The notes under the pieces: model-generated
What the model saw: only the letters and a program-made list of their open reading frames with translations
What the model was told of the DNA's origin: nothing
The model's database searches: none
Made by a program: the position numbers and the translations under genes
DNA from: Kiritimatiellia bacterium
GTDB taxonomy: Bacteria > Verrucomicrobiota > Kiritimatiellia > JAAZAB01
DNA length: 64,000 nucleotides
Direction: 5' to 3'
Assembly (NCBI GenBank): GCA_040767085.1
Contig: JAXGPF010000005.1
Location: 8,343-72,342 of the forward strand
Shown here: positions 8,151-50,775 of the stretch, in pieces
How the letters are laid out: every line of letters begins with the position of its first letter
How positions within the stretch are numbered: the stretch's first letter is position 1

Positions 8151-9347
8151 ATGCATGAACCCATCCACAACCTGTCATTGGAGCAGTTGGAATCGGCCTG
8201 TTGCGAACTGGGTCAGCCGGCCTGGCGCGCGGCGCAAATCTGGCATTGGCTGTATGTCCGCCGGGCCGGCGCTTGGGATGAAATGCGCAACCTGCCGCGC
8301 TGCCTGCGGGAACAACTGGCCGGCCGCTTCCTCTATGCCGCCGTCCAGCCGGAACAACAGGCCGAAGAAGCGGCGGCCGGCGCCGGCGCAGCCACACATA
8401 AGATCGGCAGCACGCTGGCGGATGGCGAAGTCATTGAAACCGTCCTGATTCCCGCGCCGGGGCGGGGCGGTGCCGGGCGCCAGACTGTCTGCGTATCCAG
8501 CCAGGCCGGGTGCAAGTTTCATTGCGCCTTCTGCGCCAGCGGCCAGGCGGGATTCACCCGCAACCTGTCCGTGGCGGAGATGGTGGAGCAGGTCCTGGTA
8601 TGCGCCCGCCGCCTGAACGCGCCGCCGACGCACGTAGTTTTCATGGGCATCGGCGAGCCGTTGGATAATTACGACAATGTGTTGGCGGCCATCCGCATCC
8701 TCAACCATCCCGACGGGCTGCGGATCGGCGCCCGGCGGATCACCATCAGCACCTGCGGCATCATACCCGGCATTCAGCGCCTGGCCCGCGAGGGACTGCA
8801 GACGGAACTCTCCGTATCGCTGCACGCCCCGACCGACGACCTGCGTTCGCAACTCATGCCGGTCAACCGCCGCTACGGCCTGGCGCCGCTGCTGGCGGCC
8901 TGCCGCGAATATGCCAGCCACACCGGCCGGATCATCACTTTTGAATACACGCTGATTGACAGGCTCAACGCCGCTCCGGAGCAGGCGCGCGCTCTGGGGA
9001 AACTGCTGCACGGCTGCCATTGCCGCGTCAACCTGATCCCGCTGAGCCCGGTGGCGGAGTTTGCCGGGCAGCCGCCGTCCCCGTCGGCCGCCCGGGAATT
9101 CATCCGCATACTCGAGCAGGCCGGGATCAATGCCACGCTGCGCGCATCGCGCGGCGCCGGCATAAACGCCGCCTGCGGGCAATTGCGCTTCACCCGCCGG
9201 GGTGTAGGACAAATTAGTTGGGGTAGTGCGGTGGTAGGGGTACGTAGCGAATTCCGTTCGAAAAGCACGGCGGCGATTTTGGGGCGTCTGTCCGCTACGC
9301 GGCCCCTGCGGGCGGGTTTGCCGGGAGCGGGGCAATCACCAGATTAG
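8151..9347 (+). CDS. rlmN: 23S rRNA / tRNA adenine C2-methyltransferase, radical SAM
   Basis: ORF track; CxxxCxxC as CKFHCAFC; MGIGEPLDN; C-terminal AACGQL. Confidence 0.9.
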   Translation: MHEPIHNLSLEQLESACCELGQPAWRAAQIWHWLYVRRAGAWDEMRNLPRCLREQLAGRFLYAAVQPEQQAEEAAAGAGAATHKIGSTLADGEVIETVLIPAPGRGGAGRQTVCVSSQAGCKFHCAFCASGQAGFTRNLSVAEMVEQVLVCARRLNAPPTHVVFMGIGEPLDNYDNVLAAIRILNHPDGLRIGARRITISTCGIIPGIQRLAREGLQTELSVSLHAPTDDLRSQLMPVNRRYGLAPLLAACREYASHTGRIITFEYTLIDRLNAAPEQARALGKLLHGCHCRVNLIPLSPVAEFAGQPPSPSAAREFIRILEQAGINATLRASRGAGINAACGQLRFTRRGVGQISWGSAVVGVRSEFRSKSTAAILGRLSATRPLRAGLPGAGQSPD

Positions 9348-9479: not shown

Positions 9480-9643
9480 ACCGGAATTTACAGGGTTGTA
9501 TCTATCGCGGAATCATAAATCACACTGAAATCCTCCGTGAAATTAAAGTTTATTCTAATCACCAACAAATTTGTCGTACACCCCCCGCCGCGGCCGGAAA
9601 ACCGGCGTGACACCGCGCAACCGGCATGGTAAAATATTCCACC

Positions 9644-11254
9644 ATGAACCATTGCCTTGCCAGTGTTTACCCCGAGGCGGCCGGCGAATTGCCCCCGGCC
9701 GCCGATCCGGCGGAACTGCCCGCCTACCTGACCGACGAATCGCGCCTGGCCGGACGCGCCGAAAAGATTTTTCTGCCGCGCAGCGAAGCCGAAATCCTGG
9801 CGCTGCTGCGCCGGGAGGATGCAGCGCCCTTGACAATTTCCGGCGGCCGGACCGGCATTACCGGCGGCGCCGTGCCGCGGAACGGCTGGCTGGTCAGCCT
9901 GGAAAACCTGCGCGCCTTCGCCGGCCTGCGGCGCGACCCGGAGCAACCCGGCTGTTTCCGCCTGCGCTGTCAACCCGGCGTGACCCTGGCCGGCATCGTC
10001 GAGGCCTTGGAAACCGGTCATTTCCCGGGCGCGGAAACCTGGCTGGAATCCGACCGCCAGGCGTTGGCGGAACTCCGCCAGGGGCCGCCCTGTTTCTTCC
10101 CGCCCGATCCCACGGAACGCACCGCCAGCCTGGGCGGCATGGTTGCCTGCAACGCCTCCGGTGCGCGCACCCTGGCTTACGGCCCCACGCGGCGTTATAT
10201 CACCGGCCTGCGCCTGGCATTGCCGGGCGGCGCCTTGCTGGCCATCCGGCGCGGCGAACATTGCGCCGCGCCGGACGGCGGCTTCCAGTTGGCGGCCCCT
10301 GACGGCCAGGTCCGCCGCGGCCGCATTCCGGGATACCGTATGCCGGATGTCAAAAACGCCGCCGGGTATTACAGCGCGCCGGGGATGGACTTGATTGACT
10401 TATTCATCGGCGCCGAAGGCACGCTGGGCATTTTCACGGAAATCGAAATCCTGCTGGTTCCCGCCCCGGAAGCCCTGCTGGGCGCTGTGGCCTTCTTCAC
10501 TGACGAACAGCGCGCGGTCGGATTCGTGCAGGCTGCCCGCGCGGCCGCCTGGTCCGGCAGCCGGCTGCTGGCGCTGGAATACTTCGATGCGCGCGCCCTG
10601 GACCTGCTGCGCGAACAGAAACAACGGCAGGGCGCCGGCAGCCCCATTCCCGCGTTGCCGGGCAATGCCGCCACCGCCGTTTATATTGAAATCGCCACCG
10701 CACCCGGCGCCATGGAAGAAACGGCCGAAGCCTTGCTGGCCATGCTGGAAGCCGCTGACAGCGATCCCGACAGCGCCTGGACCGCCATGGACGACGATGA
10801 ATCCATCCGGCTGAAAAACTTCCGGCATGCGCTGCCCGAAGCCGTCAACCAACACATCGGCGAACGCGCCGCAAAATATCCCGGCCTGACGAAACTGGGC
10901 ACGGACTTCGCCGTGCCGGATGCGGCGCTGTCGGCAATCCTGCCGGTTTACCATAACGCCTTGCAGGGGGCGGGCTTCGAATACGTGATTTTCGGCCACA
11001 TCGGCAACAATCACCTGCATATCAATATTCTGCCGCGCGATCTGGAAGAGTATCGGCGGGGCAAGGAACTGTACCTGCAGCTGGCGCGCGCCGCCCTGGA
11101 CCATGGCGGCACGATTTCCGCGGAACATGGCGTCGGCAAACTTAAAACCAACCTGTTGGGGATGATGTTCGGCGCCGACGGCATTGAGGCCATGCGCGCG
11201 GTCAAACGCGTCTTCGATCCCGGCGGCCAGATCAATCCCGGTAACATGTTTTGA
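9644..11254 (+). CDS. FAD-binding oxidoreductase (FAD-linked oxidase, GlcD / D-lactate dehydrogenase family)
   Basis: ORF track trimmed to ATG 9644; FAD-binding and FAD-oxidase C-terminal region (HIGNNHLHINIL). Confidence 0.8.
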   Translation: MNHCLASVYPEAAGELPPAADPAELPAYLTDESRLAGRAEKIFLPRSEAEILALLRREDAAPLTISGGRTGITGGAVPRNGWLVSLENLRAFAGLRRDPEQPGCFRLRCQPGVTLAGIVEALETGHFPGAETWLESDRQALAELRQGPPCFFPPDPTERTASLGGMVACNASGARTLAYGPTRRYITGLRLALPGGALLAIRRGEHCAAPDGGFQLAAPDGQVRRGRIPGYRMPDVKNAAGYYSAPGMDLIDLFIGAEGTLGIFTEIEILLVPAPEALLGAVAFFTDEQRAVGFVQAARAAAWSGSRLLALEYFDARALDLLREQKQRQGAGSPIPALPGNAATAVYIEIATAPGAMEETAEALLAMLEAADSDPDSAWTAMDDDESIRLKNFRHALPEAVNQHIGERAAKYPGLTKLGTDFAVPDAALSAILPVYHNALQGAGFEYVIFGHIGNNHLHINILPRDLEEYRRGKELYLQLARAALDHGGTISAEHGVGKLKTNLLGMMFGADGIEAMRAVKRVFDPGGQINPGNMF

Positions 11255-12256
11255 CTACAAAACCATGTCCGCCGGGCGCCCGCAGCCGGCGCAAACCGCG
11301 CCCTTGAGTCCGCACCGCCGGACGCGGTACCCGCGGCGTTCGATCTGCACCAATCCGCACTGCGGGCAGCGGGTGTCCTGTCCGGCCGGCGAGGCCACAT
11401 TCCCCAGATATACATAATGCAGGGCGCGGCGGCACACCGCGGCGGCGTGTTCCAGAGTTTCCGGCGGCGTGGGGGGCAGGTCCACCCGGTAAGCGGGATG
11501 GTATGCGCTTAAATGCAAAGGCGTGGCCGCGCCAAGGTTATCCCGGATCCACCCGGCCATCTCCTGGAACAACGTCTCGGCGTCATTCAACCCGGGGATG
11601 ACCAGGTTGGTGATTTCCAGGTGGCAGCCGGCGGCGCGGGCCTGCCGGGCGAAAGCCAGCACCGGCGCCAGCGGGCCGCCGCAATATTCGCGGTAAAACC
11701 GCGGGTCCATGCTCTTGATGTCAATATTCAAGGCATTTATCATTGGCAGTAGGTCCGCGGCCGGGGCGGGATTGATCAGCCCGTTAGTCACCAGGATGTT
11801 TTGTACGCCGGCAGCGCGCGCCGCGCGGGCGCAATCATGCACGAATTCAAAATTGATCAGCGGCTCATTGTAAGTGTAAGCGATGGCCGGCGCCGGATCC
11901 ACCCGCCCCCGCAGCGCGGAGGCGACCACATCCGCCGGCATGACGATACGATTTGAGCGGCCGATTTGCTGGGAGATGCCCCAATTCTGGCAGAACAGGC
12001 AGCTTAAATTGCAGCCCCAGCCCCCGATGCTGAAGACTTCCGCGCCGGGATAAAAATGGTAGAGCGGCTTTTTCTCCACCGGATCGGCTTGCGCGCCGGA
12101 AAGCATGCCGTAGCCGCTGGCCAGCAGAATCCCGCCGCGCAGCACCCGCACACCGCACCGGCCGGCATGGCCTTCGGTAATGAGACACGCATGCGGACAC
12201 AATCGGCATTGCGCCCGGCCGTCCGGCGCGCTTTCCCAGTATTTTGCGGGATGCAT
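11255..12256 (-). CDS. AmmeMemoRadiSam system radical SAM enzyme
   Basis: ORF track; N-terminal C..LCPH.C motif, DPVEKKPLYHF, radical SAM CNLSCLFCQN; stop abuts convergent FAD oxidase stop. Confidence 0.8.
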   Translation of the reverse strand: MHPAKYWESAPDGRAQCRLCPHACLITEGHAGRCGVRVLRGGILLASGYGMLSGAQADPVEKKPLYHFYPGAEVFSIGGWGCNLSCLFCQNWGISQQIGRSNRIVMPADVVASALRGRVDPAPAIAYTYNEPLINFEFVHDCARAARAAGVQNILVTNGLINPAPAADLLPMINALNIDIKSMDPRFYREYCGGPLAPVLAFARQARAAGCHLEITNLVIPGLNDAETLFQEMAGWIRDNLGAATPLHLSAYHPAYRVDLPPTPPETLEHAAAVCRRALHYVYLGNVASPAGQDTRCPQCGLVQIERRGYRVRRCGLKGAVCAGCGRPADMVL

Positions 12257-12334
12257 TGTCGGCGCTCCCTTGCGATGACTTTGGCGATCATTCTTGCTTG
12301 TGCCGCTTAATCCAGTATATTAACATGTCAATTA

Positions 12335-13513
12335 ATGAAAGTCATCCTGATTGTTCTGGATTCCGCGGGGATTGGCGCCGCACCGGATGCCGCCGACTAC
12401 GGCGATGCCGGGGCCAACACCCTGGGCCATATCGCCCGGGCCGCCGGCAGCGGACTGCGCCTGCCGAACCTGCAGCGGATGGGACTGGGCAACATTCCGG
12501 CGTTGCTGCCGGACGGCCTGTCCCTGGCAGGCGTGCCCCCGTCCGGCGCGCCTTCGGCCGATTACGGCGCCATGCGCGAAATATCCGCCGGCAAGGACAC
12601 CACCACCGGCCACTGGGAAATCGCCGGCTTGCTGCTGGCAGAAGGATTCGCGCTGTTGCCGTCCGGGCCGCCCTCTTTCCCGGAAACGTTGATAGCGGAA
12701 TTTGCCCGGCGCACCGGACGCAGCATCCTGGGCAACAAGGCTGCCAGCGGCACGGCTATCATCGAGGAACTGGGCGCGCGCCAGATGCAGACGGGCGCCT
12801 GGATTGTTTACACCAGCGCCGACTCCGTCATGCAGATCGCCGCGCACGAGGAAATCATTCCATTGGCGGAACTTTACAGCGCCTGCGCCATTGCCCGGGA
12901 ATTGTGCAACCCGCTGCGCATCGGGCGGGTCATCGCCCGCCCGTACACCGGCCGGCCCGGTCAATTCCAGCGCACCATCCGCCGGCGCGACTATTCCTTC
13001 CCGCCGCCCGAACCATTCGTCATGGAACGGCTGGTCCAGGCCGGCCGGCCGGTCGTCATGATCGGCAAGCTGGAAGATATTTACGCCGGTCGCGGCTTTA
13101 CGCAGGCATTCCACACCGGCAACAACCGGGATTCCCAGCAAAAGACCCTGGAACTGGCCGCAACGCAATCCGACGGCCTGATCATGGCCAATTTCATCGA
13201 TTTTGACATGCTGTACGGACACCGGCGCGATGCCGGCGGTTATGCCCGCGCGCTGGAACAAACCGACGCTTTCCTCGGAGAACTGCTGCCGCGGCTGGGC
13301 GCAGATGACCGGCTGATCATCACGGCCGACCATGGCAACGACCCAACCTTTGCCGGCACGGACCATACCCGCGAATACGCGCCGCTGCTGGTTTACCAGC
13401 GCCGCCGGCCGGGACGGGCCCTGGGCATCCGCCAGGGCTTCTTCGATATCGCACGGACCCTGACCGATTGGTTCAACCTGCCGCCTTGGCCGCGCGGCAA
13501 ATCCTTCGCCTGA
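12335..13513 (+). CDS. deoB: phosphopentomutase
   Basis: ORF track; MKVILIVLDSAGIGAAPDAADYGDAGANTLGHIA N-terminus typical of DeoB. Confidence 0.9.
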   Translation: MKVILIVLDSAGIGAAPDAADYGDAGANTLGHIARAAGSGLRLPNLQRMGLGNIPALLPDGLSLAGVPPSGAPSADYGAMREISAGKDTTTGHWEIAGLLLAEGFALLPSGPPSFPETLIAEFARRTGRSILGNKAASGTAIIEELGARQMQTGAWIVYTSADSVMQIAAHEEIIPLAELYSACAIARELCNPLRIGRVIARPYTGRPGQFQRTIRRRDYSFPPPEPFVMERLVQAGRPVVMIGKLEDIYAGRGFTQAFHTGNNRDSQQKTLELAATQSDGLIMANFIDFDMLYGHRRDAGGYARALEQTDAFLGELLPRLGADDRLIITADHGNDPTFAGTDHTREYAPLLVYQRRRPGRALGIRQGFFDIARTLTDWFNLPPWPRGKSFA

Positions 13514-19094: not shown

Positions 19095-22052
19095 ATGCTG
19101 GAAATTCGCGAGACGGCTGGACGAGGCTTGACGTTGGGCGGCAGCGCCGCTAATAATGCTGCCAGTGATAACCATCGGAATTTAAACGCGGAAGACCATG
19201 ATTCCGCCGCGGGCGCCCGTCCCCGCAGTCCGCGCAAGGGCGCCGGCAACGGACGCAAAGCCAAGGCTATGGGTATTGAGATTAAACCTTTATTCACCGT
19301 TCCCGACCGCCACCCCTGCGATGCGATCGAATGGGAACACCGCAAGGCCGTGATCAAGACGGATAAAGGCGAAGTGGTTTTCGAAGCCGACGACATCGAG
19401 GTGCCGAAAAGCTGGTCGATGCTGGCGACCAACGTGGTCGCCTCCAAGTATTTTTACGGCACGCACGCCACTACGATGCGCGAAAAATCCGTGCGGCAGC
19501 TGGTGCATCGCGTGGCGCGCACCATCGCCGATTGGGGCCTGGAGGACGGCTACTTTGCGACGGCGGACGATGCGGAAGTGTTTTACAAAGAACTGGTGCA
19601 TATTTGCGTCAATCAATACGCCTCCTTCAACAGCCCGGTCTGGTTCAACGTCGGGCTGCACCAGGCTTACGGCGTCAGTTCCAACAGCCGTTCCGCCTAT
19701 TACTGGAACGCCAAGAACGGCCAGATCGAAAAAGCCGAAGACGCCTACAAACACCCTCAGGCTTCCGCTTGTTTCATCCAATCGGTGGCGGACAACATGG
19801 AAGACATCATGCGGCTGGCCAGCGCGGAGGCCATGCTGTTCAAATACGGCTCCGGCACCGGCACGGACTTGAGCACCCTGCGCAGCAGCCGCGAAAAACT
19901 TTCCGGCGGCGGCACGCCTTCCGGCCCTCTGAGTTTCATGCGGGTGTTCGACCAGGTGGCGGCGGTGATCAAGTCCGGCGGCAAAACCCGCCGCGCGGCC
20001 AAGATGCAAAGCCTCAAGGTGCAGCATCCGGACATCATGGATTTCATCAACTGCAAAGTGGCAGAGGAGAAAAAGGCGCGGGTGTTGATTCAGTCCGGCT
20101 ATGACGGCTCCTTCAACGGCGACGCTTATTCCTCGGTGATGTTCCAGAACGCCAACCTTTCCGTGCGCGTAACGGACGATTTCCTCAACGCCGTGCAGGC
20201 CGGCGCCGTCTGGCACACCCGCGCCATCACCACGGGCGACATCGTGGAAGTGCTGGACGCGCGGCAGGTCATGCGCAGCATCGCGGAAGCGGCGCATTTC
20301 TGCGGCGATCCCGGGCTGCAATACGACACTACGATCAACCGCTGGCACACCTGTCCTAACAGCGGCGCGATCAACGCCAGCAATCCCTGTTCGGAATACA
20401 TGTTCGTGGACAACAGCGCCTGCAACCTGTCTTCGATCAACCTGATGAAATTTTCCGACGAGCGCCAGGTGTTCGACATCCGGCAATTCCAGCACGTGGC
20501 GCGCATCATGATCATCGCCCAGGAAATCCTGGTGGACCGCGGCAGTTACCCGACGCGCGAGATCGCGGAAAACTCGCACCGTTTCCGTCCGCTGGGACTG
20601 GGCTATGCCAACCTGGGGGCGCTGATCATGAGCCTGGGCCTGCCTTACGACAGCAAGGACGGCCGTTCCTTCGCCTCAGCCGTGACCGCCCTGATGACCG
20701 GCGCCGCCTACTCCGCTTCGATTGAACTGGCCGGGGTCAAGGGCGCCTTCGACGCATATGCCGCCAACCGCGAGCCGTTCAACCGCGTGATCGGCATGCA
20801 CCGGGACGCCCTGGGACACGTCCCGGCCACTGCCAGCAATGGCCCCATTTTACGGGAAGCCCAGGCGGTCTGGGAGCATGTGCACGCCGCCGGGCTGGCG
20901 CATGACTTCCGCAACGCCCAGGTTACGGTCCTGGCGCCCACGGGCACCATCGGCTTCATGATGGACTGCGACACCACGGGCGTCGAGCCCGATATCGCGC
21001 TGGTCAAGTATAAACAATTGGCCGGCGGGGGGATGTTCAAAATCGCCAACCAATCGCTTGCCATGGCGCTCAAGCGCCTGGGCTACACGCCGGCCCAGGT
21101 CCAGGCGATCATCGCGCATGTGGATAAAACCGACACCATTGAAGACGCCCCGGACCTGGACGAAGCGCATCTGCCCGTGTTCGACTGCGCTTTCAAGCCG
21201 CGGAACGGCAAGCGCTGCATCAAATACCAGGCCCACCTGCAAATGATGGCGGCGGTACAACCCTTCCTTTCCGGCGCCATCAGCAAAACCATCAACATGC
21301 CCGGCAACGCCACTGTCGAAGATGTGCTGCAGGCGTACATGGACGGCTGGAAACTGGGCTTGAAAGCCGTCGCCATCTACCGTGACGGTTCCAAGGGCAT
21401 CCAGCCGGTCAGCACCGCCCGCGCGGACGAGGCGGCGGTGACCGCGGAAACGCCCGCGGCGGCCGCCGCCAACAAACCTTTCCGGCGCCGCATGCCGGCG
21501 ACGCGCCAGTCCATCACGCACAAGTTCGAAGTGGCCGGCCACCAGGGCTACCTGACGGTCGGCTTGTATGAGGATGGCGCGCCGGGCGAACTATTCATCA
21601 CCATGGCCAAGGAAGGCAGCACGGTCGGCGGCATCATGGACGCCTTCGGCACGGCGATTTCGATGTGCCTGCAATACGGGGTGCCGATCAGCACCCTCAT
21701 CGACAAGTTCACTCACAGTCGTTTCGAACCCAGCGGATTCACCAAGAACCCGGAAATTCCGTTTGCCAAGTCGCTGGTGGATTACATTTTCCGCTGGATG
21801 GCCATGACTTTCCCCGACGGCCACTCCAAGAACGGGCATTATGCCGCCGCGCCCGTGACCGCCGCTGAACCGGCGGCGCCGGAAACGGATGCCGCGGAAA
21901 ATCCGGCGTCCGCCGCCGCGCCGCGCCTGGACAGCCAGTTCATGCACTTCCAGGAAGATGCGCCGGTCTGCGATCAATGCGGCGCCATTACCGTACGCAA
22001 CGGCACCTGCTACCGCTGCTTCGTCTGCGGCAATTCCATGGGTTGTTCTTGA
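19095..22052 (+). CDS. nrdJ: class II (adenosylcobalamin-dependent) ribonucleotide reductase
   Basis: ORF track; AGGAG SD 6 nt upstream of ATG; large RNR catalytic core with C-terminal CxxC...CxxC tail. Confidence 0.9.
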   Translation: MLEIRETAGRGLTLGGSAANNAASDNHRNLNAEDHDSAAGARPRSPRKGAGNGRKAKAMGIEIKPLFTVPDRHPCDAIEWEHRKAVIKTDKGEVVFEADDIEVPKSWSMLATNVVASKYFYGTHATTMREKSVRQLVHRVARTIADWGLEDGYFATADDAEVFYKELVHICVNQYASFNSPVWFNVGLHQAYGVSSNSRSAYYWNAKNGQIEKAEDAYKHPQASACFIQSVADNMEDIMRLASAEAMLFKYGSGTGTDLSTLRSSREKLSGGGTPSGPLSFMRVFDQVAAVIKSGGKTRRAAKMQSLKVQHPDIMDFINCKVAEEKKARVLIQSGYDGSFNGDAYSSVMFQNANLSVRVTDDFLNAVQAGAVWHTRAITTGDIVEVLDARQVMRSIAEAAHFCGDPGLQYDTTINRWHTCPNSGAINASNPCSEYMFVDNSACNLSSINLMKFSDERQVFDIRQFQHVARIMIIAQEILVDRGSYPTREIAENSHRFRPLGLGYANLGALIMSLGLPYDSKDGRSFASAVTALMTGAAYSASIELAGVKGAFDAYAANREPFNRVIGMHRDALGHVPATASNGPILREAQAVWEHVHAAGLAHDFRNAQVTVLAPTGTIGFMMDCDTTGVEPDIALVKYKQLAGGGMFKIANQSLAMALKRLGYTPAQVQAIIAHVDKTDTIEDAPDLDEAHLPVFDCAFKPRNGKRCIKYQAHLQMMAAVQPFLSGAISKTINMPGNATVEDVLQAYMDGWKLGLKAVAIYRDGSKGIQPVSTARADEAAVTAETPAAAAANKPFRRRMPATRQSITHKFEVAGHQGYLTVGLYEDGAPGELFITMAKEGSTVGGIMDAFGTAISMCLQYGVPISTLIDKFTHSRFEPSGFTKNPEIPFAKSLVDYIFRWMAMTFPDGHSKNGHYAAAPVTAAEPAAPETDAAENPASAAAPRLDSQFMHFQEDAPVCDQCGAITVRNGTCYRCFVCGNSMGCS

Positions 22053-27641: not shown

Positions 27642-27727
27642 GTCGTAAACAAATGACTTGGCCGCATAATTAACAAATGATTTGTCCGCTTAAAGCTGTC
27701 AGGATGGTGCATTCAAAGGGGGGTTAT

Positions 27728-28912
27728 ATGGATGAATATCCGAAGGCAGCACTGGAGCGGGCAATGAAGGTACAGGAAGTGATCTTGCGTGCGATTGAAG
27801 GGCGGTTAATGTGGTGGGAGGCGGCGGAGATACTAGGTGTGAGCTACCGGACCATGCGGCGCTGGAAAGGGCGCTACGAGCGGTATGGTTACGACGGGCT
27901 GCTGGATCGTCGGCGGAAGATACCGGGGCCGCGGCGCGTGCCCCTTGCGACGGTGAAGCAGGTGCTGAGGTTGTACCGAGAAGAATACATGGATTTCAAT
28001 GTGAGGCATTTTCACGAGAAGCTGCAGGCGGAGCATGGGATCGAGCTCAGTTATCAGTGGGTCAAGAGCGCCTTGCAGACGGCCGGGTTGGTGGCGAAGG
28101 CCCGGAAACGAGGGCCGCATCGGCAGCAGCGGGAACGGCGACCAATGGCGGGGATGATGTTGATGGTGGATGGCAGCACCCATGCCTGGTTGCCCCTGCT
28201 GGCGGGCCAGAAGCAGGATCTGATCCTGGTGATGGACGATGCCACCAGCGAAGTCTACACGGCCTATCTTGTGCCCCAGGAAGGGACATTAACGGTGATG
28301 AAGGGGTTGAAAGAAGTCATTATTAAACATGGGGTTTTCTGCAGTCTGTACACGGATCGTGGCAGTCATTTCTTTTATACGCCCAAAGAAGGCGGGGCGG
28401 TGGACCGGCGTCAATTGACGCAAATTGGACGGGCGTTGCAACAGTTGGGGATCGAACATATTCCGAGCTATAGCCCCCAGGGACGTGGGCGAATAGAGCG
28501 GATGTTTAAGACCTGGCAAGGGCGCCTGCCGCAGGAATTAAGGCAGGCGGGAATCCGGACGATGGCCGAGGCCAACGTCTATATTCAACAACAGTTTCTG
28601 CCTTCCTTCAATCGCAACATGAAGGTGAAGGCGCGGGAAACAGGAACGTGTTTCGTGCCTTGCGGTGAGCAGGATTTGGACAGCATTTTCTGTGTGCAGC
28701 ATGCGCGAGAGGTTCAAAATGACAATACCGTGGCTGTCGGGAGTCGCCGCTTGCAGATTGGACCATCAAAATGGCGTTTCAGCTTCGCCAAGTGCCGGGT
28801 TAAAGTCTGCGAGCACCTCGATGGCACGGTGTCCATCCGTTATGGCCCGCATGTGGTTGGCCGCTACCAAGGACCGTTGAACATTTCGGCGTCGCTGGAG
28901 GACGTCGCATAA
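27728..28912 (+). CDS. DDE transposase (HTH + integrase-core rve domain)
   Basis: ORF track 27677..28912; ATG 27728 (MDEYPKA...) preferred because 27677 lies in the terminal repeat and 27728 follows AAAGGGGGG; DDE-region motifs MVDGSTH, VMDDATS, YTDRGSHF. Confidence 0.8.
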   Translation: MDEYPKAALERAMKVQEVILRAIEGRLMWWEAAEILGVSYRTMRRWKGRYERYGYDGLLDRRRKIPGPRRVPLATVKQVLRLYREEYMDFNVRHFHEKLQAEHGIELSYQWVKSALQTAGLVAKARKRGPHRQQRERRPMAGMMLMVDGSTHAWLPLLAGQKQDLILVMDDATSEVYTAYLVPQEGTLTVMKGLKEVIIKHGVFCSLYTDRGSHFFYTPKEGGAVDRRQLTQIGRALQQLGIEHIPSYSPQGRGRIERMFKTWQGRLPQELRQAGIRTMAEANVYIQQQFLPSFNRNMKVKARETGTCFVPCGEQDLDSIFCVQHAREVQNDNTVAVGSRRLQIGPSKWRFSFAKCRVKVCEHLDGTVSIRYGPHVVGRYQGPLNISASLEDVA

Positions 28913-28915
28913 ACT

Positions 28916-28941
28916 TTTTCCTCCCCCGCGGGGGAGGAAAA
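28916..28941. terminator. GC-rich hairpin just after transposase stop, inside the IS
   Basis: TTTTCCTCCCCC-GCG-GGGGAGGAAAA inverted repeat read directly; no clean U-tract. Confidence 0.35.
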
Positions 28942-29023
28942 TCCTCACCCCAGGAGCAACAACACACAATAACAAATCGGACAGATCACTTGTTACAAAA
29001 AGCGGACACTTGACTTGTTACGA

Positions 29024-29042
29024 ACACATCCCCGAAAAACCT
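29024..29042. repeat. 19-bp direct repeat ACACATCCCCGAAAAACCT, right flank of IS
   Basis: Identical to 27623..27641. Confidence 0.6.
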
Positions 29043-29113
29043 TGCCAACTTCCCGGCAATCCGGCATGATTTAATTTCCATTTGGGAACCGAATAACCGC
29101 GCGAACCAGTCTG

Positions 29114-30727
29114 ATGAACTCCTCCGAAAAAAAAGATCCAGAGGCGCCGGCCGATCCGCTGGTAGACCTGCAGCGTCAATTCCAGGACGCCATGCGGCAT
29201 TATAACCTCGACGGCATGTTTCCCGGGGCCGGGTCCGACCCGGCCCCGTCGGTCAAACCGGCCGCGCCGCCGCCCGACCCGTTGCGCTGCATCCGGGAAT
29301 TCAATCACAAGCCCCGCGAAATCAGGGACTATCTGGACCGTTTCGTCATTCAGCAGGCGGACGCCAAAAAAGTGCTCGCCGTGGCCATCTGCGACCATTA
29401 CAATCATGCCCGGCAATGCATCGAAAATCCGGCCCTGCGCGAACGGGAATACGCCAAGCAAAATGTGATTCTCCTGGGCCCCACCGGCGTAGGCAAGACC
29501 TACCTCATCCGCTGCATCTCCCGGCTGATCGGCGTGCCGTTCGTCAAGTCCGACGCCACCAAGTTTTCCGAAACCGGCTATGTGGGCCATGACGTCGAGG
29601 ATCTGGTCCGCGACCTGGTCAAGGCCGCCGACGGCGACGTAGACCTGGCGCAATACGGCATCATTTACATTGACGAAATCGATAAAATCGCCGCCGCCGG
29701 CAATGCCGGGACGCGCGACGTCTCCGGGCGCGGCGTGCAGGTGAACCTGCTCAAGCTGATGGAGGACACTGATGTCAGCCTCCAAAGCCAGACCGACCTC
29801 CTGGGCCAGATGGAAGCCATCATGCAACTGCAGCGCAGCGGCAAGCCGCCCAAACGCACCATCAATACCCGCCACATCCTCTTCATCGTCAGCGGCGCTT
29901 TCGACGCGCTGGGCGAGCTGGTAAAAAAAAGACTGCAGGCCGGCGCAATCGGATTTGCCGCCGCCGGCCGCGCCACGCGGTCCGACAGCGAATGGCTGAA
30001 AAAGGCGGGCACCGCCGATTTCATCCAGGCCGGGTTCGAGCCGGAATTCGTCGGCCGCCTGCCGGTGCGCGTGGTCTGCGACGGCTTGACCGCCGCCGAC
30101 CTGGAGCAGATCATGCTTACGGCGGAGGACAGCATCCTGACGCAATACCGCCGGGACTTCGCGGGGTACGGCATTGACTTCAGCCTGACCCGCGAAGCCA
30201 TCGGCGCCATCGCCCAGCGGGCGGACGGCGAGCGCACCGGCGCGCGCGGGCTGATGACGGTCATGGAGCGGATTTTCCGGAACTTCAAGTTCGAGTTGCC
30301 GTCCACCGCCGTCAAATCACTGGAAGCCTCGACCGACACCATCGCCGACCCGGACGCGGCCCTGGCCGCCCTGTTGCGCGCCAACCTGCACGCGCAGGCG
30401 GGGCTGCTGAAGAAGGAAGTCGCCGCCTTCGCCGAGCGCTTCCGCCACGAACACGGCCTGGAACTGGTTTTCGAAGAATCCGCCATCTGTGCGCTGGCCG
30501 ACCTGAGCCTCCAGAAAGACCGGACGGTGCGCGCCATCTGCGAAGAAAAATTCCGCGACTTCCAGCACGGCCTGAAGCTGATCGCCAACAACACCGGCCA
30601 GACCCGGTTCGTCATCAACGACGCCATGCTGGCTGCGCCCGACCGCGAACTATCCCAATGGATCGTGGCGAGTTTCAAAGCCGTCCGGAACAAGCCGGCG
30701 CCCGCCGGCCCGCCGGAAGCGGTTTAA
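29114..30727 (+). CDS. ClpX-like AAA+ ATPase lacking the N-terminal zinc-binding domain
   Basis: ORF track; Walker A LLGPTGVGKT; GYVG pore loop; IYIDEIDKI; TRDVSGRGVQ; IGF-like loop AIGFAAAG; no C4 zinc ribbon; about 120-aa C-terminal extension. Confidence 0.75.
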   Translation: MNSSEKKDPEAPADPLVDLQRQFQDAMRHYNLDGMFPGAGSDPAPSVKPAAPPPDPLRCIREFNHKPREIRDYLDRFVIQQADAKKVLAVAICDHYNHARQCIENPALREREYAKQNVILLGPTGVGKTYLIRCISRLIGVPFVKSDATKFSETGYVGHDVEDLVRDLVKAADGDVDLAQYGIIYIDEIDKIAAAGNAGTRDVSGRGVQVNLLKLMEDTDVSLQSQTDLLGQMEAIMQLQRSGKPPKRTINTRHILFIVSGAFDALGELVKKRLQAGAIGFAAAGRATRSDSEWLKKAGTADFIQAGFEPEFVGRLPVRVVCDGLTAADLEQIMLTAEDSILTQYRRDFAGYGIDFSLTREAIGAIAQRADGERTGARGLMTVMERIFRNFKFELPSTAVKSLEASTDTIADPDAALAALLRANLHAQAGLLKKEVAAFAERFRHEHGLELVFEESAICALADLSLQKDRTVRAICEEKFRDFQHGLKLIANNTGQTRFVINDAMLAAPDRELSQWIVASFKAVRNKPAPAGPPEAV

Positions 30728-30761
30728 TCCGGCGGCGAATCCGGCGCGTCGAACCAGCCGT

Positions 30762-32189
30762 TCACCGCAGTTTGAACAATGCGCCCCGCGGAATAGTTTC
30801 ATAGGCGCCCATATCCACAATACCGGAAAATCGGTCCCGGCGCACAAATCCCGCAAGATCCACGGCGCCGGTCATCCAATCCATGTTGGTACCGGCGTTG
30901 ACGCCCGGCGACTGCGCATCCAGCCGGAAAGATTCATCGCTGAATAACGGCGGACTGGTTATATTGCCTTCGCCAGAACCCATCTCAGACGCGGGATATG
31001 AACAGGAATACACCACACCGCCGGTCAGTGCGGCTCCGCTCAAGTTAAGATTAGACTGCAACCCCGCCGCATTATTGTAAATGACGCAATTGACGGCGTG
31101 GACGCCGCTGACCTCCGCCGTGGTCACGCCGATATACAATCCCCCCCCGCTGGTGGTTGCCGCGTTTGACACAATCGTGCAATTGGCCAGTGAATTGCCG
31201 TTGTCGCGGTTTTGCGCCGCACAGTAGATTCCGCCGCCATAGGGCGCCGAGTTATAAGCGAACACATTATTGCGCAACACGATGCGGCAGGCATCGCCGC
31301 GAATGTATAATCCGCCGCCGTAGTAATAACCGGCGCGGGTCACCAGATTGCTTATGATCCGGCAATTTTCAATCACTGCCTCCCCGGACGCGGCGGCGCC
31401 ATAATAACAGTACATCCCCCCTCCCTGATTGGTTGCCGCGTTACAGGCGATAGTAGAATTAGCCACCACCCCCTCCATTTTCAAATGGATGCCGCCGCCA
31501 TACAAGCCGGCATTAGCAAAGATCACGCAATTGGAGATGAAACCGTTTTGCTCCACAAACACGCCGCCGCCATAATTGGGACACCGATTGGAAATGATGG
31601 AGCATTCGATTAACGCGCCGCTTTCCCGGATCAGCACTCCGCCGCCGCCATAGGAAGTATCCCGTTCGGACAAATTATTAAAAATGCTGCACCTTTCCAC
31701 CCGGGCCAACGGCCCGTTCAGGCAGACGCCCCCGCCATGCAGCCCGACATTTTCTTTTACCCGGCAATCGCGAAGCATTCCGGCAGAAATATAAACGCCG
31801 CCGCCATAAACTGCAGAATTGGCCGAGCCATTGCTGATGGTAAAACCGGTGACTACGGCATTGGAATGGCTGATGTTCAGACAGCGCACCGAAGCCTTGC
31901 CGTCTATCGATGTCTGCTCGGTGCCAGCGGCGCCGACCAGCCTAACGCCTTTGCTGACCGCCAATTCAGCTTCCAGAAAATATACGCCGTTGGATACCAG
32001 AATCATATCATCTGTCAGGGACTGATCCAGGGCATTGCTGATCGTACGCAAGGCCGTCGGCCAGTTCGTGCCGTCCGCCCCATCCTGTCCCAAAGTCGAA
32101 ACATACCATGTAGTTGCACCGCGGCCGGGCAGCGGCATCCCCAACCCTATAATCCATGCTAATGTCAGACAGCGCTGTAGTGCTTGCAT
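30762..32189 (-). CDS. secreted right-handed parallel beta-helix repeat protein
   Basis: ORF track; signal peptide; repeated YGGG motifs; C-terminal DMGAYE. Confidence 0.6.
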   Translation of the reverse strand: MQALQRCLTLAWIIGLGMPLPGRGATTWYVSTLGQDGADGTNWPTALRTISNALDQSLTDDMILVSNGVYFLEAELAVSKGVRLVGAAGTEQTSIDGKASVRCLNISHSNAVVTGFTISNGSANSAVYGGGVYISAGMLRDCRVKENVGLHGGGVCLNGPLARVERCSIFNNLSERDTSYGGGGVLIRESGALIECSIISNRCPNYGGGVFVEQNGFISNCVIFANAGLYGGGIHLKMEGVVANSTIACNAATNQGGGMYCYYGAAASGEAVIENCRIISNLVTRAGYYYGGGLYIRGDACRIVLRNNVFAYNSAPYGGGIYCAAQNRDNGNSLANCTIVSNAATTSGGGLYIGVTTAEVSGVHAVNCVIYNNAAGLQSNLNLSGAALTGGVVYSCSYPASEMGSGEGNITSPPLFSDESFRLDAQSPGVNAGTNMDWMTGAVDLAGFVRRDRFSGIVDMGAYETIPRGALFKLR

Positions 32190-32434
32190 CTCTATCCTTT
32201 CTCGTTGGCTACAACCTAAACCGCCAATGGCATGCCAGAAACAGTTTGCTATTTAAGTTAATTTCAAAGTCCGCTGGTCTATAATGCCTCAAGCTGACAC
32301 TAACTGACTTTTATACAAGTTAATCGCCACCTGATTTAAGAATTATAACAAACGAAAACCAGGGACGGCAAATATTTCCCATGTTGTGAGCAAACAAATC
32401 GTCCAGTTTGAGACTCTTGCACGTGGCTCGCATT

Positions 32435-34090
32435 TCAATTAAACATTACAGCTTGGGAAAAAAGCATATCCACTATTGGAATCGGCGCAGGCTCGCGCTT
32501 GTCGGAATCGACCGTTCCGCTGTAACCGCCCCCGCGAAAATCGTGCAGGCGGCTGATCTCCAGCACGTTCATGGATGCCATGGTCTCCGCCGTGAGCGGT
32601 TGGCCCTGGCAATGTGTTGCGGGATAAGCAAAGGCTTCGATTCTCACATATTTTTCCAGGATGCGGCCGGCGGGATCGCGGGAGAGTGTGTAAGCCGCCT
32701 GCGGCTGGTTTTCAATGAGGGCCACACCTTGGTCGGTGATGAAACGCACCTGCACGCGCGGCCTTTTGGTCTGATCCGCACCCGCCACTGCGACGGTTAC
32801 CGCGGTGGGATTCCCGGTTTTATCCTTTTCCAGGGCGATACGGGCGAATCGGAAACTACTGTAATCGTATGGCGGGGTTTTACGTCCCTGGCCATCGGTC
32901 GCCAGCGCGCCCAGCAGACCGTAAAAAGTTCCATTGCGGTAAGCGCGCGCGGCGTTATGCTCCCTGGCCTCCCGGGAAAGCTCCCCGGACTCCGGCACCA
33001 GCAGTATGTTGCGGCCCCGGGCGTAAACAAAATGATCGCGCACAAAAAAACCAAAACATCTTTGCCCGGTTGACAGCACTTCATCCCAGTGGTTGTAAAA
33101 AGCCAAGGTGCCCTTGCGGCCGAAAGCCAGGTGCTGGTTCCAAACCTCTATGCCCAGGACGCGCGGATCGAATGCCAGCTTTTCGAGCGTGGCTTCCAGC
33201 GGGCCGCCCGTGTGGTTGAGGGTGATACCGCCCCCGTCCCTGAAGCGGAGACCTTCTATCGGATGGCCCTGGCCATCTTGCATTGTGCCGTCAAGCGCCG
33301 CCTTATACGCATCGCGCCATGGCCGATGCACGCCCTGCCGCAGGACAAAGCGCAAGTCGGTAATTTCCTCCGGATTAAAATCGAACCGGACTTGCATCCG
33401 GCCGGATTCCGCCCGGAGATAGATTCTTCGCGTATTGACGGGGATGCTCCTTTTTTGCAGGTCGCTGTCCGGAGTGAGTTCGTAAGTTGCCGGGTCAACC
33501 TCGCGCGCGCCGGCTACCGCCAAGGTCATAGCCGCATCGGCTTTCCCGCTGATAAACATGTCCAGGCGGTAAATGCTCAGCCATGGCTTTTTATCGTCAT
33601 AGGGGTTCAGATTTTCGAACGCGTATGCCACGGGGGAAGTCCGGTTATTGCGGTATGACGTTTTTGCGCTTTCGCCATGCCCGGTGGCGTAATAGCTGTC
33701 CAGCGTATTGAAATGGCCGGGACCGTGAGCGCTATGATGCTCGGCGTTGGGCGCCCAGAGGGCGTCCGGGTGCTGCGCCCGGAACTTCTCGGGCAAGGGT
33801 TGCGGTTTGGAAGGATAGTAGTTGGAAAAAGGGAAATGGCGAAATCCCATTTCCCAGAATAGTTCGGGATTGACATCATAATCCGGCACGCGCCCGCCAT
33901 GCTGATGGGAAAAGGAATGCAGATGTTCGACGCTGCTCCAGTCAACGTTTTCGTATGGGTTCATAATTCTGTTCGGGGCGGCGGATGCATGTTCCTGTCC
34001 CGCGGTTGGCCGGGTGAAGACAAGCCCGGAGTAAACAAACAGCGTCACCAATATGGCGCTATTTCTGCGAACCTGCCTTGGACGCATCAT
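32435..34090 (-). CDS. secreted hypothetical protein (possible glycan-active or metal-dependent hydrolase)
   Basis: ORF track 32435..34096 (GTG) trimmed to ATG 34090; signal peptide; His-rich HLHSFSHQHGG; no confident family. Confidence 0.45.
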   Translation of the reverse strand: MMRPRQVRRNSAILVTLFVYSGLVFTRPTAGQEHASAAPNRIMNPYENVDWSSVEHLHSFSHQHGGRVPDYDVNPELFWEMGFRHFPFSNYYPSKPQPLPEKFRAQHPDALWAPNAEHHSAHGPGHFNTLDSYYATGHGESAKTSYRNNRTSPVAYAFENLNPYDDKKPWLSIYRLDMFISGKADAAMTLAVAGAREVDPATYELTPDSDLQKRSIPVNTRRIYLRAESGRMQVRFDFNPEEITDLRFVLRQGVHRPWRDAYKAALDGTMQDGQGHPIEGLRFRDGGGITLNHTGGPLEATLEKLAFDPRVLGIEVWNQHLAFGRKGTLAFYNHWDEVLSTGQRCFGFFVRDHFVYARGRNILLVPESGELSREAREHNAARAYRNGTFYGLLGALATDGQGRKTPPYDYSSFRFARIALEKDKTGNPTAVTVAVAGADQTKRPRVQVRFITDQGVALIENQPQAAYTLSRDPAGRILEKYVRIEAFAYPATHCQGQPLTAETMASMNVLEISRLHDFRGGGYSGTVDSDKREPAPIPIVDMLFSQAVMFN

Positions 34091-34240
34091 AATCACTGTA
34101 ATCCATCTCCCATGGAAATATTATGCCGGCAATATACGAGTTGTTTACAAAAGCCTGGCGCAATATGGATTTTTAGTTTTACGTTGAAAATCCAATCGTG
34201 TCAAATTTAAGGCTCCTAACCAGAATTTGTGGGTAAAAAA

Positions 34241-35936
34241 CAGGTTTTAAAGTTTAAGAAGTTCTCCAAGCAATGGCGCCAAAAGATGGTGGAGTTATTA
34301 ACAGCCTGCCGCTTTGGGCGTTTGGCGGCCCCGCAGCAGCCTGATTAATAACTCCTGATTGGCGCGATGGCGGAACGGAGATAAAGCGGCGGCAAAAAAA
34401 TAGGCTGGCCTTTCCGTAATCCATTGCGTATGCAATGGGTGAACACAAAAAAAGGAGGACCAGCCCAAGGTGAAACTTAAAACAATTTTGAATCGTTTGC
34501 AACCTTTGAAACGTTTTATTTATCAGGAAACTTGTATGGTTTTGGATCGTCGCGGCCAATGGAAAGTGGATATAAGCATTCGTCCGCATCGCCAACGCGC
34601 GGCATGCTGCTCGCGTTGCGGGCGACCGCTGGCGACATACGACACTCTGCCTGAACGGATATGGGCGTTTGTGCCCATTTTGAATGTGCCGGCTTTTTTG
34701 CATTATAGTCCGCGCCGGGTAAATTGCCCCGAACATGGCGTGGTGGTGGAAGCGCTGCCTTGGAGCGATGGCAAACGACCCTACAGCAAGGCGCTGATGC
34801 TTTTTTTGGGGAACTGGGCGCGGAGGTTGTCCTGGAAAGAGACGGCGCTGATTTTCAAAGTCAGTTGGCAGGCGGTTTATCGGTCGGTCGAGTGGATGGT
34901 GGAATGGGGCTTGGCGCACCGGGAATTGGCCAATATAACGGCGATTGGTGTTGATGAACTCCACGTAGGCAACGGTAAAAAGAGCAAGAACTATCTGACC
35001 TTGATCTATCAGATTGATGCGCAATGCCGCCGATTGCTCTGGGTCGGCCAAACCCGCCGGGCGGCCGCGCTGCGTAAAGGGTTGCAATCTTTGGGAAAAC
35101 CCGTGCTGGCCGGCATTCGACATATATGTAGCGATATGTGGCGACCTTATCTGAAAGTCATTGCTGCGAGCCTCAGCCACGGTTGCCACATGATTGACCG
35201 CTTCCATGTCGTGCAAACCTTGAATGCCGCCGTGGACGAGGTCCGGCGCCGGGATATGGCGGCGATGACAGCGCGTCCGGCGGCCAAGCAAAAACTCAAG
35301 AAAATGCGCTGGACCTTGCTGCGCCGCAAAACCCGCGTGCGCGGCAAAGCTCGCGAAATGCTTGATCGGATATTGGGCACAAGACTGCAAACCGGCCGCG
35401 CCTATTTGTTCAAGGAAAGCTTTCAGCATTTTTGGAGCTATCACAGCCCAACCTGGGCGCGTAATTATCTCCAGGCATGGGTCAAGCGCGCCTGTCGTAG
35501 CCGCATTGCGCCAATCATTAAGGCGGCTAAAACCATTGCTAAACACGAGGAGCTGCTTTTGAACTGGATCAGAGCCAGAAACGAGGTTTTTACTGGCGCA
35601 ACCGAGGGCTTGAACAATAAAGCTCGAGTGGTTACCAAACGATCTTATGGCTTCAGAACTTTTCATGGCGCGGAAATGGCGCTATATCATACCCTTGGGC
35701 AATTGCCCGAACCGGTAATCACCCACAAATTCTGGTGAGGAAACAAATTTAATAACTCTACGAATTTTGCTGAATTTTCACGTTTTTACTGTATTTGGAC
35801 GGACGCGCCTGTTTACGGCCTTTACGCGCTATACGTTAATCTGCCTGGAGTGACAACAAGCGAAAACGGGATAAAACCAATGTTTGCCCAAATTTCAGCA
35901 AAACAAAGCATCCATTTTTAGACTTTTGAAACCAGA
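34241..35936 (+). mobile_element. ISL3-family insertion sequence (boundaries approximate)
   Basis: ISL3 transposase flanked by imperfect inverted repeats (about 34241..34263 vs 35913..35936, roughly 17 of 22 matched); GC visibly lower than surroundings. Confidence 0.5.
34470..35738 (+). CDS. ISL3 family transposase
   Basis: ORF track; GTG start after AGGAGG; N-terminal zinc-finger cysteines; C-terminal TGATEGLNNKARVVTKRSYGFR and terminal HKFW. Confidence 0.85.
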   Translation: MKLKTILNRLQPLKRFIYQETCMVLDRRGQWKVDISIRPHRQRAACCSRCGRPLATYDTLPERIWAFVPILNVPAFLHYSPRRVNCPEHGVVVEALPWSDGKRPYSKALMLFLGNWARRLSWKETALIFKVSWQAVYRSVEWMVEWGLAHRELANITAIGVDELHVGNGKKSKNYLTLIYQIDAQCRRLLWVGQTRRAAALRKGLQSLGKPVLAGIRHICSDMWRPYLKVIAASLSHGCHMIDRFHVVQTLNAAVDEVRRRDMAAMTARPAAKQKLKKMRWTLLRRKTRVRGKAREMLDRILGTRLQTGRAYLFKESFQHFWSYHSPTWARNYLQAWVKRACRSRIAPIIKAAKTIAKHEELLLNWIRARNEVFTGATEGLNNKARVVTKRSYGFRTFHGAEMALYHTLGQLPEPVITHKFW

Positions 35937-35943
35937 TTAATGA

Positions 35944-37197
35944 TTATCTTGTTATTAATCTGATCGCAATATTTTCACAACCGGCCGGCGGCGCATAATT
36001 TTCCAACCGGCTGATCGTTCGCCCGTTCGATTCCGCTATGATGTCATAATGGAAAAAGGTCGTCACGGGCACGCCATCCGCATCCGCCGCGATTATGCTG
36101 TGGGTTAAAATAATAGCGCGGGCATCGCCGGCGCCCGGCGTGCATCCATCCGTTCCGGTGATGGCGTAATTATTGGCGACCAGGTCTTCCCCCGTCTCGC
36201 GGGGTACGGCGCGCACGCGCGCCCGTGCGACAGGGTCACCGGCATCATTTTCCACACGGACTGCCACTTGCCGACGGAAAACGGCCCGGCTGCTTTGGCC
36301 AGGTTGCGCCGCGTAAACATCCGGCTGTGCGCCGGGAGCAACCTGGCAATCCGTCAATTCAATCCGGCCGCCGCTGGTCAATTGCCAATTGCGCGCATTG
36401 CGTTCGAATCGGCAGCCATGCAAAAGGATGGTATTGCCCTGGATACCGGCAATAACCGTGGTGTTTTCCCGGAAACAGCAGCCTTCCGCCGCTTGATCCG
36501 GCGCGCTGAAAACAGATGCATTATTTTCGAAAATCGAATCGCGGATTGACGCGCGCTGCCGGGCGGCGCCAAATAAAGCGGCAGCGTTGAATCCGGCAAC
36601 CAACGCGCGGTCCAGGGTGACCAGCCCTGACCAATAAGGGCGGGCTATTTCCCGCCGCCCGCTCGCCGATGCAAGCACACCATGATAAATATGCAACTCG
36701 CCGCCATAGCCGTTTTGCCACCCCCCACGTCCATCGGGCAACTTGCCGGAAACAATCGTGTGGTCTTTCCCGCCGATCTTAAGCGCCGCCCGGATGGCGG
36801 AGTTTGTGCGGTTGCCCAAGGTCAAGCGGTTGACGCACGCGGGAGCGTATCGGTCGTTCACGCCGACCACCAGATAAGGCGCAAGAATCAAAGTTCCGTT
36901 CAGGATCAAAGTTTCGTTGGCCAACAGTGGACATCCGATTTGCATCCACGTTTCAGAACCGTCATTCCGGCCAACCTGCAGGTTGGCGTCAACGGTATAT
37001 GTTTGCGCGCCGGCATCCTTCCGTACCAGGTTCCAACCATTGGCGCGGTCAGCGCGCAACAGTGACTCCAGTCGCGCCGGCGCTGACTCGGCAAAGTCAG
37101 CCACAATCATCGTGCGCGTACCGGACTCAAAAACGACTGTCGCCGGCAAGGGGAGGCTGATCAACAGGCATGCCAGACAGGCAATAATTTTACCCAT
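35944..37197 (-). CDS. secreted beta-helix-like hypothetical protein
   Basis: ORF track 35944..37236 trimmed to ATG 37197 (AGGTGG SD upstream; signal peptide MGKIIACLACLLISLPLP); stop lies within about 10 bp of ISL3 right end. Confidence 0.5.
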   Translation of the reverse strand: MGKIIACLACLLISLPLPATVVFESGTRTMIVADFAESAPARLESLLRADRANGWNLVRKDAGAQTYTVDANLQVGRNDGSETWMQIGCPLLANETLILNGTLILAPYLVVGVNDRYAPACVNRLTLGNRTNSAIRAALKIGGKDHTIVSGKLPDGRGGWQNGYGGELHIYHGVLASASGRREIARPYWSGLVTLDRALVAGFNAAALFGAARQRASIRDSIFENNASVFSAPDQAAEGCCFRENTTVIAGIQGNTILLHGCRFERNARNWQLTSGGRIELTDCQVAPGAQPDVYAAQPGQSSRAVFRRQVAVRVENDAGDPVARARVRAVPRETGEDLVANNYAITGTDGCTPGAGDARAIILTHSIIAADADGVPVTTFFHYDIIAESNGRTISRLENYAPPAGCENIAIRLITR

Positions 37198-37223
37198 ATT
37201 ACCACCTGAATCCGTTATGAGGT

Positions 37224-37357
37224 CGGGATGCCGCATCCCGCTGGAAGTGCGACAAGAATACGCGGCGCGAAGGATGAAGCTGGATCAACATATCCCGCGA
37301 TAGCGGGACAAGCTGCAAGTTTATCCCGCGAGCGGGATTTATCCCGCACAGCGGGAT
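37224..37357. repeat. array of four short GC-rich hairpin palindromes sharing half-site ATCCCGC/GCGGGAT
   Basis: CGGGATG-CCG-CATCCCG (37224..37240); ATCCCGC-GATA-GCGGGA (37292..37308); ATCCCGC-GA-GCGGGAT (37323..37338); ATCCCGC-ACA-GCGGGAT (37341..37357); extra half-site at 37497..37503. Confidence 0.5.
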
Positions 37358-37530
37358 TCTTCGCAATAGAGCAGATGCGGCATAATGGCCTCACCCGCAG
37401 GGCGGTCTTTCCCGTCAAACCGAGCCGTGCTTTTTTGGTGATATTGTAAAACGCCATAAATTGTTGTTTATTCAGGCATTATCTTAACAATATAAAATCC
37501 CGCCACGGATTCAGGTTGCATTGCCGCGGG

Positions 37531-44027: not shown

Positions 44028-44226
44028 AGCTATGATCTGAGGCCGACACCGCGCCGGGCGCCGGGCTTGTTCAGCCAGCATGCTACCATTCCGCGCCGGG
44101 TTGTCAATGTTTTCCCCGGCCGGACGCCGGCCAAGCACCAACCAGGAGTGGCGCGGGCTTGGCGGAATGGCCGGCGCTGCATTTACAGCCTTGACTTGCC
44201 GGAAACTTTGGGTAACTTATGTTTTC

Positions 44227-50622: not shown

Positions 50623-50775
50623 GCCATCTATCTTGAAAACCCGGAAAAGTCTGCCATCGTCCGCCGTGAATGGCAAGCGCAAACGCGGTGGATAGGGATT
50701 GACAGACAGCGCCCTCCATGCATATTATGCGCCCGTTAATCCACGCAGGCTGCTGCGTCACGGAAAGGAACCACG

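Follow-up and report, generated by a model that had tools for sequence, protein, structure and literature searches.

Conservation of AMMECR1 and Memo extends from archaea to humans, and both have been linked to human disease. Together with a radical SAM enzyme they form the AmmeMemoRadiSam system, a trio for which we know of no identified substrate. Contexts of Memo were reportedly linked by Burroughs et al. in 2019 to the modification of nucleotide bases and of aliphatic isoprenoids. Full-text literature searches for experimental characterisation of the AmmeMemoRadiSam family found none, and RNA base modification was predicted from comparative work (Balaji and Aravind 2007, PMC2034487). An earlier note on the DNA described here had called the substrate of the enzyme unknown, and this statement stands, as the literature contained comparative-genomic predictions and no experiments were found. 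The family itself is already known and is named by automatic annotation. It is also large, with 1,245 representatives at E <= 1e-30 among the 1.84 billion cluster representatives searched, and a homologue, MFN2351607.1, which is 66% identical to the protein considered below, has already been named 'AmmeMemoRadiSam system radical SAM enzyme' by NCBI. A PDB sequence search with the protein considered below returned no solved structure for any family member, and PFL-AE, the pyruvate formate-lyase activase of the glycyl-radical-enzyme activase group, was the sole relative found (3c8f best, E 2e-9).

The window, by which is meant the whole 64-kb stretch of DNA that was analysed, carries a gene of this family, and its features are collected in Table 1. 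The encoded protein scored 313.1 bits (E 1.9e-93) on the NCBIfam model TIGR04337, whose curated cutoff is 220, with an alignment that spans protein residues 4-328 and profile positions 1-328 out of 349, and Pfam returned PF04055 alone, with 64 bits. The runner-up model was PflA (TIGR02493), at 54.7 bits (cutoff 231.75); PFLE_PFLC (TIGR02494) reached 49 bits against 174.35 and NrdG2 (TIGR02495) 36.6 bits against 131.15, and no QueE model was present among the 15 NCBIfam families matched at E <= 0.001. The earlier note had taken the protein for the radical SAM enzyme of the AmmeMemoRadiSam system, to be abandoned if an activase, QueE or another radical SAM subfamily scored better in an HMM search. 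Because TIGR04337 lies above its cutoff and the rival radical SAM models far below theirs, that search does not refute the family call, and the protein is a member of TIGR04337.

Table 1. Coordinates of the radical SAM gene, its motifs and its immediate surroundings in the window.
Feature	Position	Strand	Basis
FAD-linked oxidase, GlcD-like, convergent	9626..11254	+	PF01565 + PF02913
AmmeMemoRadiSam-system radical SAM enzyme gene, 333 aa (TIGR04337)	11255..12256	-	ORF, profile match
C-terminal Cys4 motif C297/C300/C322/C325 (CxxC...CxxC), zinc ribbon-like	11282..11368	-	
Radical SAM [4Fe-4S] motif C82-x3-C86-x2-C89 (CNLSCLFC)	11990..12013	-	CX3CX2C
N-terminal Cys4 motif C17/C20/C24/C34 (CxLCPHxC...C), candidate auxiliary Fe-S or Zn site	12155..12208	-	
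Divergent intergenic spacer between the radical SAM gene and deoB, 78 bp	12257..12334	.	ORF coordinates
AGGGAG, Shine-Dalgarno-like, 8 nt upstream of the radical SAM ATG	12265..12270	-	Read from sequence
Phosphopentomutase deoB, divergent from the radical SAM gene	12335..13513	+	NF003766, 493.5 bits vs cutoff 256

The start codon of the radical SAM gene is the ATG at 12256. The N-terminal motif reads C17-R-L-C20-P-H-A-C24 followed by C34, and the cluster motif reads in full C82-NLS-C86-LF-C89-QN, its CX3CX2C aligning with the cluster motif of E. coli PFL-AE. Both motifs had been pointed out in the earlier note, where the first was written C..LCPH.C, with one dot too many for the real spacing of C.LCPH.C. 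Conservation was assessed in an alignment of the window protein with 65 family members from related genome loci. C17, C20, C24 and C34 were invariant in 66/66 aligned members and in 62/62 of a second alignment, C82, C86 and C89 were invariant in 66/66, and each of C297, C300, C322 and C325 was conserved in 98% of the 66 members, all four being present in the window protein. In total, 75 positions were at least 90% conserved among the 66 members, and the window protein keeps all 75, including 11 cysteines. The N- and C-terminal Cys4 modules probably bind metal. The gene is under purifying selection, with dN/dS of 0.10-0.17 relative to relatives of 83% and 66% identity, and is intact and a typical member of a widespread, already named family.

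An AlphaFold2 model of the protein was obtained with a pLDDT of 90.6 and a pTM of 0.90. Its best fold match in the PDB was E. coli PFL-AE (3cb8, E 1.5e-13, target-normalised TM 0.80), followed by NifB, BioB, LipA and HydE. In the model, a compact PFL-AE-like core is predicted to be flanked by the N- and C-terminal Cys4 modules, with short beta strands predicted at residues 303-314 in the C-terminal Cys4 region.

A search for the two partners of the system was made with verified partner seeds taken from related loci, which were used singly and as profiles at the most sensitive settings. The related loci, 73 in number with one genome per species, were sampled with query peptides as seeds and are therefore enriched in relatives of the query. 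Partner proteins in them included a 178-aa protein beside the radical SAM gene in a Nitrospinales genome, which matched TIGR04335 with 147 bits against a cutoff of 99, a 531-aa deltaproteobacterial protein in which Memo (TIGR04336, 174 bits) is fused to AMMECR1 (158 bits), and a protein of a Bacillota locus in which a LigB-like domain is fused to AMMECR1. Neither phmmer nor hmmsearch gave a match better than E = 0.017 for AMMECR1 or Memo in the 64 kb translated in all six frames, and Pfam scans of about 50 window genes did not find AMMECR1, Memo or LigB (PF01871, PF01875 and PF02900). The observation in the earlier note that neither partner adjoins the gene thus holds for its immediate surroundings and for the whole of the 64 kb.

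Across the related loci, AMMECR1 was adjacent to the radical SAM gene and on the same strand in eight, being fused to Memo in L067 and to a LigB-like domain in L045. Among the 43 loci that had at least 3 kb on both flanks, AMMECR1 was nearby in six. The PVC clade, by which are meant here MAGs labelled Kiritimatiellia, Lentisphaerae, Victivallales, Verrucomicrobiota or Planctomycetota, had a partner nearby in 0/18 loci flanked on each side by 3 kb or more and in 0/32 loci of any flank length (about 372 kb of flanking DNA). The PVC sequences formed one clade in a neighbour-joining tree, and the linked members, from Nitrospinota, Bacillota, Bdellovibrionales, a deltaproteobacterium and Moranbacteria, did not group together but were scattered among unlinked ones. 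One Nitrospinota MAG, JADGAO01, contained two family copies on different contigs (L039 and L047), each 46% identical to the query. The word 'orphan', applied to the gene in the earlier note, is therefore apt for the lack of an adjacent partner within 64 kb and fails as the description of an oddity, since 37 of the 43 related loci are likewise without one; in the PVC lineage, genes of the family as a rule stand apart from those of the partners. Adjacency or fusion to AMMECR1 and Memo, though frequent, is no requirement for membership of TIGR04337. TIGR04337 scores were 298-371 bits for AMMECR1-adjacent members, 306-330 bits for unlinked PVC members and 313 bits for the window protein, and because these ranges overlap, the window protein is, as far as its sequence can tell, indistinguishable from members demonstrably in the three-gene system. 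A profile built from seven verified AMMECR1 sequences was also run against 5.8 billion proteins; the best 120 matches listed, at 249-280 bits, carried labels such as Nitrospinota, Nitrospirota and Chloroflexota, and none of these 120 was labelled as PVC.

Gene fusions were sampled by scanning with Pfam ten long proteins from the best 150 of the 1,245 representatives. Three of the ten (P0299, P0313 and P0330, 1070-1152 aa) were fusions in the order radical SAM, AMMECR1, Memo; another (P0306, 835 aa) had the order Memo, AMMECR1, radical SAM, and P0274 (558 aa) was an AMMECR1-radical SAM fusion. The occurrence of fusions of the three in both domain orders is strong evidence that radical SAM enzyme, AMMECR1 and Memo act in a single pathway. 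N-terminal NosR/NapH-like membrane redox modules (a DsbD_2 transmembrane region, FMN_bind, Fer4_5) were found in P0265 (1055 aa), P0286 (753 aa) and P0281 (593 aa), which suggests that in some lineages the radical SAM enzyme draws its electrons from a membrane-bound donor.

Taken with what is known of the family, the gene is likely to encode a functional, canonical radical SAM enzyme of the AmmeMemoRadiSam system in a Kiritimatiellia-like PVC bacterium, with its partners encoded elsewhere in the genome. By analogy with established radical SAM chemistry, C82, C86 and C89 would coordinate a [4Fe-4S] cluster for the reductive cleavage of S-adenosylmethionine. The resulting 5'-deoxyadenosyl radical would then remove a hydrogen atom from a substrate on which the enzyme acts together with two partners, an AMMECR1-type protein (A) and one of the Memo/LigB type (B). 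Both Cys4 modules may bind an extra metal, serving electron transfer or docking, and an open, compact barrel like that of PFL-AE would be well suited to substrates that are large or are presented by a protein. Both partner genes, A and B, are assumed from the family definition to be sited elsewhere in this genome, and the radical SAM gene would be a stand-alone transcription unit, in an unlinked arrangement common to the whole PVC clade.

With regard to the nature of the substrate, the sole neighbour association that recurred in unrelated lineages was with a polyprenyl synthetase (PF00348), whose gene lay directly upstream on the same strand in 7 of the 73 loci (L038, L043, L044, L046, L051, L052 and L056); in L044, from Nitrospinota, the order was polyprenyl synthetase, AMMECR1, radical SAM. 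As six of these seven loci come from related genomes, the association may partly reflect shared ancestry. The adjacency of polyprenyl synthetase and the membrane redox fusions together lean weakly towards a membrane-associated, isoprenoid-type molecule as substrate, a reading that is held tentatively and falls somewhat short of an even chance, with a nucleotide or RNA base and a protein residue as the alternatives. The 64-kb window itself contained no polyprenyl synthetase and no membrane-redox feature.

The immediate neighbours of the gene are, as the earlier note had it, a convergent FAD-linked oxidase with abutting stop codons and deoB. The TGA of the oxidase gene (11252-11254) touches the TAG of the radical SAM gene (11255-11257) with zero bases between them, so that no terminator can fit between the genes at 11252-11257. 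The oxidase gave a partial glcD match of 170 bits, under the cutoff of 568. On the other side, the 78-bp spacer presumably holds both promoters; neither a sigma-70-like promoter nor a terminator-like site was found in the spacer or at the abutting stops. Farther neighbours encode RlmN, PdxB, a Ser/Thr kinase and two glycosyltransferases. Conservation of the neighbourhood, which the earlier note had proposed to examine in related genomes, proved to be limited to the closest relatives as far as the oxidase and deoB are concerned. The order deoB, radical SAM, FAD oxidase, RlmN recurs in L002 (66% identity) and L004 (83%), the only loci in which the oxidase adjoins the radical SAM gene; in L003 (83%) deoB adjoins it before the contig ends, and L018 (60%) retains deoB alone, less close to the radical SAM gene. 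The stops also abut in L004, and L002 has a 165-bp gap at this place.

Neighbours in other lineages included a SurA-N/PPIase protein (16 loci), an ArnA-like protein (5 loci) and a GAF-GGDEF protein (5 loci). The SurA-N + PPIase protein (about 576 aa, PpiD-like) adjoins the radical SAM gene in two separate clades, with examples in L021 (2049-3779), L020, L026, L031, L038 and L056; its gene is convergent in Lentisphaerae/Victivallales and, in the CSSED10-310-related group, co-oriented with the radical SAM gene and about 1 kb upstream of it.

Three other readings of the gene were weighed against the one given above. Functional coupling between the enzyme and the flanking genes, such as a pathway shared with the FAD oxidase and/or deoB, would accord with the gene order kept in L002 and L004, with deoB adjacent in L003 and nearby in L018, and with stops that abut both here and in L004, but the gene is convergent with one neighbour and divergent from the other and hence shares no transcript with either. 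Moreover, only relatives with 60% identity or more show the synteny, which is missing from the other 28 or so PVC loci, while other lineages place SurA/PPIase-like, ArnA-like or polyprenyl synthetase genes beside the enzyme. Coupling was rejected as very unlikely on the ground that the synteny is limited to close relatives, and the FAD oxidase/deoB neighbourhood gives no functional clue. Even less credible is that the protein is a glycyl-radical-enzyme activase of the PFL-AE type, mislabelled by the family model. PFL-AE is indeed its closest solved structure and closest PDB sequence, and many homologues are labelled 'pyruvate formate lyase activating enzyme' by JGI, but all activase models fall far under their cutoffs, and the match to PFL-AE is limited to residues 80-254, which excludes the invariant Cys4 modules at residues 1-60 and 290-333. 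The fusions with AMMECR1 and Memo, too, define a partnership other than that of an activase. The Pfam scans, which covered about 50 window genes, found no glycyl-radical enzyme domain, and the sole ribonucleotide reductase in the window is of the B12-dependent class II; the activase reading was rejected on the model scores and on the missing glycyl-radical enzyme in the window.

The third possibility is that the PVC clade is truly without partners, keeping the radical SAM enzyme in the absence of AMMECR1 and Memo for a substrate of its own. An A or B gene was met in none of the 32 PVC loci and nowhere in the window, the single PVC clade fits vertical inheritance, and the gene is under purifying selection. 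These observations have to be read against the fact that the examined flanks cover well under 1% of each PVC genome. In addition, the PVC members match TIGR04337 as well as the linked members do and retain every family-invariant residue, including both Cys4 modules, and the presence of linked and unlinked members side by side in Nitrospinota indicates that linkage varies without any change of family. A partner-less clade is accordingly considered improbable, though less so than the two preceding readings, and a canonical enzyme with partners encoded elsewhere is preferred. If PVC genomes did prove to be without AMMECR1 and Memo, the defining co-occurrence of the system would be broken, the enzyme would have a substrate independent of two proteins conserved up to humans, and its chemistry could be studied free of the partners. 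As matters stand, this gene, as an ordinary member, adds nothing to the substrate question.

Several other features were recorded in the window. The segment at 27677-40791 has a lower and uneven G+C content, down to 0.50 at 34-36 kb compared with about 0.62 overall, and holds a transposase-like HTH_28/HTH_32 protein, an AAA_2 ATPase and four large ORFs (430-1086 aa) without a Pfam match or a meaningful PADLOC match; it may be acquired DNA. The PADLOC scan covered the unannotated large ORFs of the window and gave nothing meaningful. An ORF of about 1210 aa at 56962-60603 (minus strand) had no Pfam or PADLOC match, and another of about 1210 aa at 47053-50682 (minus strand) has right-handed beta-helix repeats like those of a secreted polysaccharide lyase. 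Genes for RNA modification are scattered at 8151-9347, 43308-44141 and 55136-56152 (RlmN, QueC and Sua5/TsaC, respectively); they are unrelated and not linked to the radical SAM gene. The gene for the class II B12-dependent ribonucleotide reductase (19095..22052) is likewise not linked to it.

In comparison with known systems, the window protein shares with PFL-AE (E. coli PflA; 3c8f, 3cb8) a compact radical SAM core, the CX3CX2C motif and about 20% identity. It differs from PFL-AE in carrying extensions at both ends, of about 60 residues with an invariant Cys4 motif at the N-terminus and of about 45 residues with a second Cys4 motif at the C-terminus, in scoring far under the PflA cutoff, and in having no glycyl-radical enzyme partner in the window. 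The radical SAM domain of the fused proteins, both those joined to partners (P0299, P0313, P0330, P0306 and P0274) and those with membrane modules (P0265, P0286 and P0281), is 41-46% identical to it over the full length; compared with these, the window protein is the bare enzyme, with neither a fused partner nor a membrane electron-donor module. Relative to the linked members of TIGR04337, it stands without a partner within 64 kb, as do the PVC clade and most of the sampled relatives, and it has in common with the family its length, the three Cys motifs and a score in the range of the members that lie beside, or are fused to, their partners.
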